Origin: a virus | Lineage: Duplodnaviria > Heunggongvirae > Uroviricota > Caudoviricetes | Length of the DNA stretch: 62,656 nt | IMG/VR virus record: IMGVR_UViG_637000105_000002 | Reading direction: 5' to 3' (one strand) | Position numbers: made by a program | Shown here: positions 57,001 to 60,000 of the stretch, piece by piece | Position numbering within the stretch: position 1 is the first letter of the stretch | How the letters are laid out: every line of letters starts with the position of its first letter

Positions 57001-60000
57001 CGGCGGCACGATGGGGTGAAGTCATGCAACTGGTGGAGACAGACAAGGAACGGCATCAGGTTACGATGCGACGGCTGGAATGTTCCAGGAAGGCACAGAG
57101 GCCACCGGAGCCGCCAACGGAGAACTATGCAGACCTGAGAAATGCAGTAAATCGCACTTACGCAGACATGGGGCTGAGCAAATTAGCAGAGTAGGAATAC
57201 CAGAACCACACCACACAGCCGGAGCAATCCGGCTTTTTTGCGCCCAAAAAAAGCCCGATAAGGTCAGAGGTGGCTTATCGGGCTTTTGCATATGAGGTTT
57301 TTTGGTGCACTGACACACATGATCGGGATAAACATTTCATAATTTGCAACGCAACTCAATATCATTGCTCAAAATGCAATCATGATTATAATCATAACTG
57401 GATGAACATCCAGTTATGATTTTTTAAGTCAAAGAGGAATTTCTTACTATGGCTGAAGAGAAAAAAGGCGGTGTTTCGGTGTACATAAGCCCCGACATCG
57501 TGAAGGCGCTCAAGGAACGCCACCAGCAGAACGTAAAAGCAGGCATTGCGGCAGGACTTGATCCGCTGGCGATGGTTGAGCCGTCAACAGGCTGGCAGGT
57601 ACGCGCCTATTTACGCGCGGCGCAGGGTATGAATCAGGTTCACGGGGGTGAATAATGACAGTAAAAGCAATGGCACTTAACACTAACCAGCTTTTTGCGT
57701 ACCTGAATCGCGGGGATATTGCGGAATTTAAATTCAGTCCGCTGTTTACCACGCTGTTTTTCCCGAACGTGGCGACATTCAGCACGCAAAACATCATGCT
57801 GGATACCCTGGACATTGAAGAAGTCACCATGTCGGCGTTTTGTTCGCCTATGGTGGGTAGCCAGGTTCAGCGCGATAAAGGGTACGAAACCAGCACGATT
57901 AAACCTGGCTACATGAAGCCAAAGCACGAAATCGATCCAACGAAAACCATCATGCGCATGGCTGGAGAAGATCCGGCACAGCTTAACGACCCTACCTATC
58001 GCCGTATGCGCCTGATTACTGGCAATATGCGCCGCCAGATAAACGCCATAAAAGCGCGCGTGGAATGGCTGGCGGTAAATGCGGTAACGACCGGAAAAAA
58101 CATCATTGAGGGCGAAGGCATAGAGCGCTATGAAATCGACTGGAAGATACCGGAAAAAAACATCATAGAGCAGGCCGACGGGAAAAAATGGTCAGAGCAG
58201 GACAAAGAAACCCACTATCCAATCTATGATATCGAACTATACGCCGATCAGGCTGGTTGCCCCGCAAACGTCATGATTATGGGCGCTGAGGTATGGCGAA
58301 CGTTACGCAGCTTTAAAAAATTCCGTGAGCTGTACGATCTTTCCCGTGGTTCAGAATCCGCCGCCGAACTGGCCTGTAAAAACCTGGGCGAAGTGGTGAG
58401 CTTTAAAGGCTATCTTGGTGATCTGGCCCTTATCGTCTATTCCGGCAAATACACTGACAGCGATGGTACCGAAAAATATTTCCTTGAGCCTGATTTGCTG
58501 GTCCTAGGTAACACCAACAATAAAGGGCTGGTGGCCTATGGTGCGATAATGGATCAGGAAGCGGTAAGAACGGGCGCAACACAAAACATGTTTTACCCGA
58601 AAAACTGGATTGAGGACGGAGATCCGGCGATTGAGTACGTGCAGACGCACAGCGCACCGCAGCCGGTTCCGGCAGATATTCGCAAATTTGTTACTGTCAA
58701 AATTGCTTAACGGGGGATTCTATGGACACTCCATACATTGAGTTATTTGCAGGCAGTCAGCAGGTCGCCACGACGCTGGTACATTTTGCCGCTGATGCTG
58801 GCGTTATTCAGGAATTTACCCCGCTGATGCTGGCGGACAATGGCGAGTTTAAGCCGTGGGATGGTAAGGAATCTGGCAAGGCTGTTTATCTGACCTCGTA
58901 CCCTGTGGACACGTCAAAGCAGAAATCAGCACAGTGTTACAAGACGGGGATATTCAATATTGCCGCCGTTAACTGGCCTGAGAGCGTCGACACCGATGCG
59001 AAAAAATGCGCCGCCTTTGCGGGTTCTGGCGTATCCGTTCAGCCGCTGGCCCGATAAGCAGGGGGAACGATGGCAACGAATGAAAGCATCATGACGCTAC
59101 CGCTGGCGAGTAAATTTAAAGCCGAAGCGCGGGCAATGGCTGACAGAGGTTTATCAACCTATGAGGCCGTATATCAACTAAACAAACTGGAAGAGCAGGA
59201 CAAGCCGCGCGCTGATGCGATTATGGCGCTTGATGAATCTGGCGACTATCAGCCGCTGTTACGTGCAATGGCAAACGTGCCTTGTATCGATGTTGGTACG
59301 GCTAAAAGCATCCTTAGCATGACCATAGAGCAGGAACGTCCGAAGGTTGCGCCGGAACTTACTGCAGCCTTTGAAAACTTTATGGACATGCACAGCCCGC
59401 AAGCCGTATCAGCTGGCATGGCATACGATGGCAGAAACCAGGGCGATGACGGCGACATCGATCGCATACTGAAAACCATCTGAGACAAGGCCGGAGAAAT
59501 CCGGCTTTTTTTATGGGTCCTTTCCGGCATATGGACCCGTTACGGGGCGGCGACCTCGCGGGTTTTCGCTATTTATGACGTTTTTCCGTGAAGGTGACAC
59601 CACCACCACTTGATTAATATTTAACCATGCAGTTAAGGTAACATTATGATTGATAAAGCTTGTTTTGTAAGTCAGCAGGAAATAGCTGAACATTTCAAGG
59701 TTAACAGAACCACTATTCGCGCATGGACCAAACAGGGGATGCCGTATCTTAATGCGGATCGCGGAAAGTCTGGCGGTTATCACATCGGGCATACATTGCT
59801 TTGGTCTTCAGGTAAAAGCCGTCTTGAGGCCATCAGATATCACGTAGAAACCAGTGCGCTGGAAAAAATTATGTTTGCCAGGCTGCTTTCATCTGAGCGT
59901 GACGAGTACTCCAGTGAAGAAACAGAACATCGATTTGATGAAGGTTTGCAGATTTACGGCTATTCACCGGAAGATGTGAGCAAGGCACGAAATAAAATGG

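Follow-up and report, generated by a model that had tools for sequence, protein, structure and literature searches.

The subject of this report is a cassette of capsid genes in a satellite island, which lies within a 62,656-nucleotide stretch of viral DNA (IMG/VR record IMGVR_UViG_637000105_000002), hereafter the window. Positions 49800-61100 of the window (11.3 kb) were 100% identical at the nucleotide level to 1,377,813-1,389,113 of Escherichia coli CFT073 (NC_004431.1). The island is EcCICFT073, the model Gram-negative phage-inducible chromosomal island (PICI) (PMC6092414, PMC6739421), with roxA on one side of its site and phoQ on the other. The RefSeq annotation of the island lists an integrase, an AlpA-type regulator, a primase, a single-stranded DNA-binding protein (SSB), a PerC-family regulator, a major capsid protein, a head decoration protein and several hypothetical proteins. 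The features of a classical Gram-negative PICI were all found: int, alpA, a primase-replicase, a cos/rpp packaging module, a length of about 11 kb and no tail or lysis genes.

An earlier note on this DNA had described three capsid-type genes in the island, and these were detected as intact open reading frames (ORFs), each homologous to the gpE, gpD or gpC C-terminus of the prophage in the same window. The absence of portal, protease and terminase genes, also claimed there, agreed with the RefSeq annotation, which shows no portal, protease or large terminase; the ORFs and the annotation together revealed no head-tail adaptor genes either. The cassette is a genuine and dedicated module, although one that was known before: the island is a model island, genes of the cassette are published and one structure has been solved. 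What is added here is modest and consists of the Nu3-type assignment of c1501, a four-gene operon with a conserved private promoter, and an ancient, constrained, satellite-only lineage of E and D genes.

Genes of the capsid cassette

The gene c1499 (57655-58710, plus strand) encodes a lambda gpE-family (HK97-fold) major capsid protein of 351 amino acids (aa), as determined by Pfam, PDB and BLASTP comparisons. Its product was 47% identical to the gpE of the window prophage (26840-27868) over 343 aa (E=8e-109), 45% identical to the E of the helper prophage and 44% to lambda E. The Pfam family PF03864 (Phage_cap_E) covered residues 26-349 with 174 bits against a cut-off of 22.9 (5e-51), and PHROG 29 (major head protein) was matched at 2.9e-107. 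The sequence is identical, residue for residue (351/351), to PDB 3BQW, deposited as 'putative capsid protein of prophage', and the HK97 fold of c1499 is therefore experimentally established. The lambda gpE structure 7VI9 was matched at 5e-82. PDB 3BQW serves as the HK97-type representative of its Pfam family (10.1101/2021.03.18.436031).

The next gene, c1500 (58722-59057, plus strand), encodes a head decoration protein of the gpD/SHP family with 111 aa, assigned by Pfam, PDB and BLASTP. It shared 36% identity over 101 aa with the gpD of the window prophage (26435-26782; 2e-16), and the identities to the prophage and helper D proteins were 36-43%. The Pfam family PF02924 (HDPD) was detected with 63.5 bits (cut-off 29.1; 2.5e-17). 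Among solved structures, phage-21 SHP (1TD0/1TD3) was matched at 6e-13 and lambda gpD (1C5E) at 3.5e-9. As a member of this family, c1500 would bind as trimers at the three-fold sites of the expanded capsid. The pairwise alignments proposed in the earlier note were thus significant for both proteins (47% over 343 aa for the E-like and 36% over 101 aa for the D-like protein), and the lack of structural similarity that would have spoken against it was not observed, as the E-like protein is PDB 3BQW itself and the D-like protein matches SHP/gpD structures.

The third capsid-type gene, c1501 (59070-59483, plus strand), encodes a free-standing Nu3-type scaffold-like protein of 137 aa, according to BLASTP, PHROG and hhalign comparisons. 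A BLASTP match of 36% identity over 83 aa (2e-10) was found with the extreme C-terminus of the window prophage gpC (24893-26398). The Pfam search of c1501 gave no match. The protein was assigned to PHROG 1999 (unknown function) and also matched positions 495-567 of 583 in PHROG 53 (head maturation protease; 1e-8); the same C-terminal PHROG 53 match was obtained with the homologue from island L004, which is 28% identical to c1501. When the c1501 family was aligned with phage gpC/Nu3 C-termini by hhalign, the probability was 96.8% (E=2.3e-10, 76 columns), and in tblastn c1501 matched annotated Nu3/scaffold regions of phage 21-like phages. The sequence consists of two Nu3 repeats, 'IMxL...A..MA..G.S..EA', and a C-terminal F-E-x-F-M-x-x-H-S-P motif. 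This motif is common to c1501 and 21-type gpC, the helper gpC/Nu3 included, and is missing from lambda Nu3. Direct BLASTP of c1501 against lambda Nu3 gave no match, so the likeness is to the 21-type. Taken together, the comparisons identify c1501 by homology as a free-standing relative of the Nu3 scaffold domain at the C-terminus of phage-21-type gpC. Nu3 proper shares its reading frame with the 3' part of the protease gene C, in which it is nested, whereas c1501 is a separate gene, and no S49 protease was found in the island. The AlphaFold2 (AF2) model of c1501, which like the other AF2 models rests on a shallow alignment of database matches, was all-helical with a pLDDT of 44, too poor for a fold search; it is compatible with a flexible scaffold and proves nothing. 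Many members of the c1501 family carry the NCBI label 'phage head-tail connector protein'. The length of the c1501 gene is confirmed by the supplement of PMC6092414, where its annotation is blank, and no paper in the searchable literature calls it scaffold-like or gives the cassette a function.

The cassette begins with a fourth gene, c1498 (57449-57655, plus strand), which encodes a protein of 68 aa assigned to PHROG 3255 (unknown function; 9e-36). Its stop codon overlaps the start codon of c1499 as ATGA, suggesting translational coupling of the two genes. Homologues of 46-97% identity are conserved in most related islands and carry the invariant N-terminal motif GGVSVYIS; the gene is missing from the island lineages which have an AlpA-like gene after D. 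In the AF2 model c1498 was a strand-helix-helix protein with a pLDDT of 65. The protein was considered as a ribbon-helix-helix regulator, which was not supported, as Foldseek against the PDB gave nothing with E<1.9 and no Pfam or PDB sequence match was obtained. It was also considered as an equivalent of gpW, which has 68 aa as well, but no similarity to the helper gpW was found. The three-gene set proposed earlier therefore stands in its E, D and scaffold-like genes and has to be extended to four genes by c1498.

Promoter, expression and packaging neighbourhood

Two intrinsic-terminator hairpins with T-runs lie on the plus strand upstream of the cassette, at 57217-57234 and 57253-57283 (region 57217-57287). 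The first was detected by a scan; the second, read from the sequence, is formed by GCCCGATAAG...CTTATCGGGC and followed by TTTT. These terminators would close the SSB/PerC-family unit and insulate the cassette from it. The private promoter and leader of the cassette occupy 57334-57448 (plus strand) and were delimited by an alignment of eight islands and by reading of the sequence. The region contains the dyad TTGCTCAAAATGCAA of the TTGC-N-GCAA type (57365-57379), the 14-bp palindrome ATGATTATAATCAT (57382-57395) with a consensus -10 element TATAAT inside it (57387-57392), the leader hairpin AACTGGAT-GAAC-ATCCAGTT found by the hairpin scan (57396-57415), a T-run (57420-57425) and the ribosome-binding site AGAGGA (57433-57438), all on the plus strand. 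The upstream terminators and the 14-bp palindrome mentioned in the earlier note were accordingly both recovered. The cassette ends with an intrinsic terminator at 59487-59518 (plus strand) with a 9-bp stem, 5 GC pairs and a T-run.

Across the eight aligned islands, one of them from Salmonella, the promoter and leader retained long invariant runs despite saturated synonymous divergence (dS) in the coding sequences. Searches of the window, the window prophage, the helper prophage and the alpA promoter gave no second or related copy of the cassette operators. The hairpin and T-run of the leader raised the idea of helper late-promoter mimicry of the Q-dependent pR'/tR'-like type; none of the sequences searched, the helper prophage among them, had an operator copy. 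The leader fold was not significantly stable (z = -1.66).

In public RNA-seq data of uninduced CFT073, the log2 changes at 37 versus 23 °C were 2.24 for c1498, 2.05 for c1499, 1.45 for c1500 and 1.17 for c1501. The corresponding value of alpA was 2.26. The island integrase, primase and rppA and the helper terminase and portal genes were unchanged, and the changes of helper C, D and E were not significant. The cassette proteins were not detected in the proteome table of the same 37/23 °C study. The data support c1498-c1499-c1500-c1501 as a four-gene operon under a control separate from that of the packaging gene. A second AlpA-family gene (PHROG 2790, 4e-39) fills the Nu3-like slot in the lineages with 52-55% E identity; these genes lie at 11402-11746 in L006, 10375-10812 in L014 and 10403-10756 in L015. 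The AlpA-like gene in this slot and the joint increase of alpA at 37 °C hint at AlpA-type control of the capsid cassette.

Directly after the cassette terminator lies the cosN-like core of the published cos1, a lambda-type site with the sequence GGGGCGGCGACCTCGCGGGTTTTCGCTATTTATGA (59544-59578, plus strand), followed by c1503 (59646-60080, plus strand). Both are outside the operon, and the cassette thus adjoins the cos1 and rppA packaging module. The order claimed in the earlier note, with cos and a Nu1-like gene after the scaffold-like gene, was confirmed by these positions. The 144-aa product of c1503 is a Nu1/TerS mimic and matched PHROG 57 (terminase small subunit; 3.9e-8), the match being confined to the N-terminal helix-turn-helix; the Nu1-like reading of this gene holds, although the gene is already published as RppA. 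The RefSeq locus tag of the gene maps to c1503. RppA forms heterodimers with the TerS of the helper and shifts packaging to the island site cos1 (PMC6739421), the function of which has been described (PMC6092414, PMC6739421).

The helper was identified by deletion as CFT073 prophage 4 (PMC6092414) and placed at icd (PMC10111431): deletion of prophage 4 abolished the transfer of the island, and deletion of the non-helper prophages left it unchanged. The icd site is situated just past the window end; the window prophage, which had been used for the comparisons in the earlier note, is not the true helper. The helper head genes are of the 21-type, and the helper E shared 94% identity with the E of the window prophage and 45% with that of the island. 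The head genes of the window prophage (20715-30344) are nearly identical to those of the helper (L002 34333-41525).

Other observations concern the surroundings of the cassette. The gene of the PerC-family activator (Pfam 2e-35; 56946-57194) lies directly upstream, with the two terminators in between, and occurs in the CFT073, O157 and L010-L012 islands and not in the more distant ones. Two long mechanical ORFs run across the two cos regions, at 59511-59792 (minus strand) and 60162-60641 (plus strand), and encode the near-identical peptide stretches INSENPRGRRPVTG and INSENARGRRPVTG. These stretches result from the duplicated cos1/cos2 DNA and are not genes; RefSeq annotates there only 60360-60641 (c1505) on the plus strand.

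Comparison, selection and spread of the E-D pair

Among 50,697 records, no phage carried an E protein more than 48% identical to c1499. In a large protein database, homologues of c1499 were graded at 96, 86, 68, 64, 59, 55 and 52% identity. The genomic context was read for six database homologues (52-68% identical), and all six were located in a satellite context, consisting of an integrase, AlpA, a DUF4222 protein, a primase/helicase and often SSB, followed by E and then D. Four opened E. coli nucleotide matches (82-95% nucleotide identity) had the same cassette after a helicase and SSB. The hosts of the satellite E-D loci belonged to four genera (E. coli, Salmonella, Serratia and Edwardsiella). 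Phage records of 20 kb with E matches of 45% were suspected of being satellites but proved to represent incomplete ordinary phages, in which the genes are ordered C-D-E.

In all sampled satellites E preceded D, which is the reverse of the phage order, and D was co-inherited with E in 14/14 satellite loci (the window, L003-L012 and L014-L016). The E of a satellite shared about 45-47% identity with the E of its own helper, and the value was 47% even in the islands embedded in the helper. In the neighbour-joining tree, the E proteins of lambda, of the 21-type and of helpers grouped together with a bootstrap value of 100%, and none from a satellite fell within this clade. The satellite E proteins therefore represent an old, maintained lineage.

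The ratios of nonsynonymous to synonymous divergence (dN/dS) against CFT073 were 0.06-0.13 for E, 0.10-0.27 for D, 0.21-0.63 for c1501 and 0.19-0.44 for c1498, with synonymous sites being saturated between the lineages. The cassette ORFs were intact in every sampled island carrying them, and the inactivating mutations which the earlier note had listed as possible counter-evidence were not found in the capsid homologues of the sampled islands. Intact genes, the E dN/dS of 0.06-0.13, the shared E-D order and the lack of any phage E above 48% identity bear out the view of a dedicated module rather than prophage debris.

With a coverage of at least 80%, the CFT073-type cassette was present in 594 of 5426 complete E. 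coli genomes (about 11%), and the cassette genes were all annotated as intact in the sampled rows of these 594 genomes. The cassette was linked to varied replication and packaging modules among the E. coli genomes and, judged from these sequences, moves as a unit between island backbones. In O157 and other strains (L010-L012, 4808-5350), a cassette of 92-95% nucleotide identity accompanies a RepA-helicase replication module instead of the primase; L010-L012 carry a 180-aa 'terminase small subunit' where CFT073 has the 144-aa RppA.

The third slot, after D, was occupied by a Nu3-like gene in CFT073, L004/L005 and L009-L012 and by an AlpA-like gene in L006-L008, L014 and L015, and was empty in L003 and L016. 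The third slot being variable, the conserved core is the E-D pair and the scaffold-like gene is a lineage-specific addition. Several islands are inserted into late genes of helpers, the sites being in E, in the portal gene or, for lambda-head/P2-tail hybrid phages, in the tail region, and all of them bear the same E-D pair (L007 2511-14073; L008; L016 1-11681; L009; L014). L007 and L008 lie inside the helper E gene and L016 inside the portal gene; the L016 island has no Nu1-like gene after D.

Known systems and possible functions of the cassette

The published EcCICFT073 is the same locus with 100% nucleotide identity, in which c1499 and c1500 have been named, c1503 is known as RppA and cos1 and cos2 have been mapped. 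In those papers c1501 and c1498 were left unannotated, and a satellite-only phylogeny, selection analysis, promoter and Nu3 assignment were not given. Compared with the C(Nu3)-D-E genes of lambda and phage 21, the island has the same E, D and Nu3 C-terminal families and the same cos-type neighbourhood. In contrast to these phages, the island order is E-D-Nu3, the scaffold-like gene stands alone instead of lying within a protease gene, portal, protease, terminase and gpW/FI/FII are missing, and E and D reach identities of only about 45% and about 36-43%, respectively. Like c1499, the Ccm protein of SaPIbov5, a Staphylococcus aureus pathogenicity island (SaPI) with cos packaging, is encoded by the satellite and homologous to the major capsid protein of the helper. 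However, the functions of Ccm, which are redirection of capsid size and shape and interference with the helper, were both tested and not found in EcCICFT073 (PMC6092414), and Ccm has no companion decoration protein. The capsid-forming PICIs (cf-PICIs) of the EcCIEDL933 type share the int-alpA-rep backbone and have their own capsid genes in clades separate from phage. They encode in addition portal, protease, head-tail adaptors, HNH, TerS and TerL and use another capsid family, none of which was found here; as its own portal, protease, adaptors and large terminase are all lacking, EcCICFT073 is not a capsid-forming PICI. The helper-embedded PICIs such as 11capE (PMC10111431) carry the same E-D lineage, with 55% E identity, before a Nu1-like gene. 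The 11capE type differs in its position inside helper late genes, in an AlpA-like rather than Nu3-like third gene and in the lack of c1498.

The earlier note was uncertain whether the gene set had been described before. The capsid protein c1499 and the head decoration protein c1500 were named in 2018 (Fillol-Salom et al., ISME J, PMC6092414), and both were deleted in the same study because of the Ccm precedent. Deletion of c1499 or c1500 did not restore lambda plaquing, left the interference unaltered and had no effect on the transfer by the resident helper (PMC6092414). In EcCICFT073 particles made with lambda all the DNA was phage-sized, and after induction of CFT073 with its native helper no band of PICI monomer was detected (PMC6092414). 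These results, together with the deletions being without effect, contradict the proposal of an own, smaller capsid (PMC6092414). The transfer of EcCICFT073 rose once the island length was restored (PMC6092414), which fits multimer packaging in full-size heads. When the post-ori genes were over-expressed singly (2019, Mol Cell), c1503 alone blocked lambda (PMC6739421). A capsid gene was present in 21/29 reference Gram-negative PICIs and was not needed for transfer (PMC10111431); capsid gene or capsid morphogenesis counts as a core PICI component in Proteobacteria (PMC10085698), and a review states that EcCICFT073 has a capsid homologue yet normal-size capsids (PMC6893505). It was suspected that the 'c1501::tetA' marker disrupts c1501, which would have voided the negative results of the published work. 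However, the recombineering primer stops exactly at the stop codon of c1501, leaving the gene intact; since tetA was placed just past this codon, c1498-c1501 were intact in the published experiments.

That the cassette is functional for the satellite lineage is established. Our preferred reading, to which we assign a rough probability of 0.4, is that its products enter the helper-nucleated assembly of full-size heads as an accessory supply of shell subunits. After helper induction the cassette products would join the lambda/21-type head pathway of the helper, which would still provide the portal, the gpC protease, the terminase (redirected by RppA) and the tails. Satellite E would provide part or all of the subunits of full-size shells, c1501 would take part in their assembly and satellite D would stabilise them. 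By supplying or replacing shell subunits, the cassette would reduce the need of the island for helper E and D while the capsid size is unchanged, and it would be redundant when a laboratory helper is fully competent. In favour of accessory supply, c1499 is a complete HK97-fold capsid protein, and D is always retained with E under purifying selection. Proteins of the gpD type bind only the expanded lattice of DNA-filled heads, and as D has been kept under selection, satellite E should reach the expanded state. The shared F-E-x-F-M-x-x-H-S-P motif suggests that c1501 may be cross-compatible with the protease/scaffold system of the helper. The position next to cos1 and rppA and the old, maintained satellite E lineage outside the phage clade also count in its favour. 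Full-size particles were observed experimentally (PMC6092414).

Several points weigh against accessory supply. With the native helper, neither deletion reduced the transfer, which was 3.8e3 transductants/ml for delta-c1499 and 8.7e3 for delta-c1500 versus 8e3 (PMC6092414 Table 1), and no study reports c1499 or c1500 in particles. Co-assembly would have to join E proteins which are only 45% identical. Other lineages lack the scaffold-like gene or have an AlpA-like gene in its place, so that it is not an obligatory partner. The operon and alpA were about 4-fold higher at 37 than at 23 °C in uninduced cells and the helper late genes and rppA were not; transcription at 37 °C without induction fits a role outside packaging at least as well.

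Further readings share parts of this evidence. It is doubtful, though deserving serious attention, that such islands are half capsid-forming satellites, whose E, D and Nu3-like proteins would in nature build the whole or a defined part of the shell on a stolen helper portal, which would have been missed as laboratory helpers make the cassette redundant; in a variant, the shell would be made in uninduced cells at 37 °C for a role unrelated to transfer. A back-up role, in which the cassette supplies E and D where those of the helper are interrupted by embedded islands or mutated in defective prophages, is rather unlikely. No proteins are more abundant in the lambda head than E and D, and relatives inside the helper E gene (L007, L008) or portal gene (L016) carry the E-D pair. 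However, EcCICFT073 and most of its relatives are not embedded, and the islands in portal or tail genes carry E and D and not the interrupted gene. The idea was put forward in PMC10111431, where the redundancy was described as not essential. An anti-phage role in the uninduced cell, in which constitutively made satellite E, D and scaffold would poison the head assembly of incoming non-helper lambdoid phages, by co-assembling with them or titrating their partners, and would thereby protect both host and island, is considered unlikely. The uninduced transcription described above, independent of rppA, replication genes and helper late genes, would suit it, as would the private, strongly conserved promoter with its operator-like dyads, and interference or defence functions are frequent in PICIs (PMC8989297, PMC11364771). 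In contrast, delta-rppA alone nearly fully restored lambda plaquing and no other post-ori gene blocked lambda when expressed singly (PMC6739421), a poison subunit would need no cognate decoration protein under purifying selection, and the proteins were not detected in the proteome table mentioned above.

Size redirection, by satellite E in the manner of SaPIbov5 Ccm or by c1501 in the manner of SaPI1 CpmB, would give small heads with one 11-kb genome with certain natural helpers only, and appears quite improbable. CpmB competes with the 80alpha scaffold through a shared C-terminal motif, and c1501 has the C-terminal motif of the helper scaffold. Reviews take the satellite capsid homologue as a redirection candidate (PMC6893505, PMC10085698), and PmCI172, which also has a capsid homologue, makes small heads (PMC6092414). 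The phage-sized DNA packaged by lambda and the missing monomer band with the native helper, obtained with c1498-c1501 intact, speak against redirection, as does the better transfer of the length-restored island, which fits multimers in full-size heads; furthermore, deletion of c1499 or c1500 does not relieve the interference (PMC6092414). That the cassette is decaying, as a leftover of an ancestral prophage or capsid-forming island that serves no function today, is strongly disfavoured. Although no phenotype has been found for c1499 or c1500 (PMC6092414), the ORFs were intact in all sampled islands, the E dN/dS was 0.06-0.13 despite saturated dS, the promoter is conserved and the cassette persists in the 594 of 5426 genomes.

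The cassette reveals no new kind of system. If the half capsid-forming reading were true, these islands would represent an evolutionary intermediate between classical PICIs and cf-PICIs. The capsid gene counts as a core gene of Gram-negative PICIs and the cassette occurs in about 11% of complete E. coli genomes, yet it has no phenotype in the one model island in which this was tested. A constrained satellite-only lineage with its own promoter, and here also with a scaffold-like gene, sharpens the question of the purpose of the cassette and makes it directly testable.

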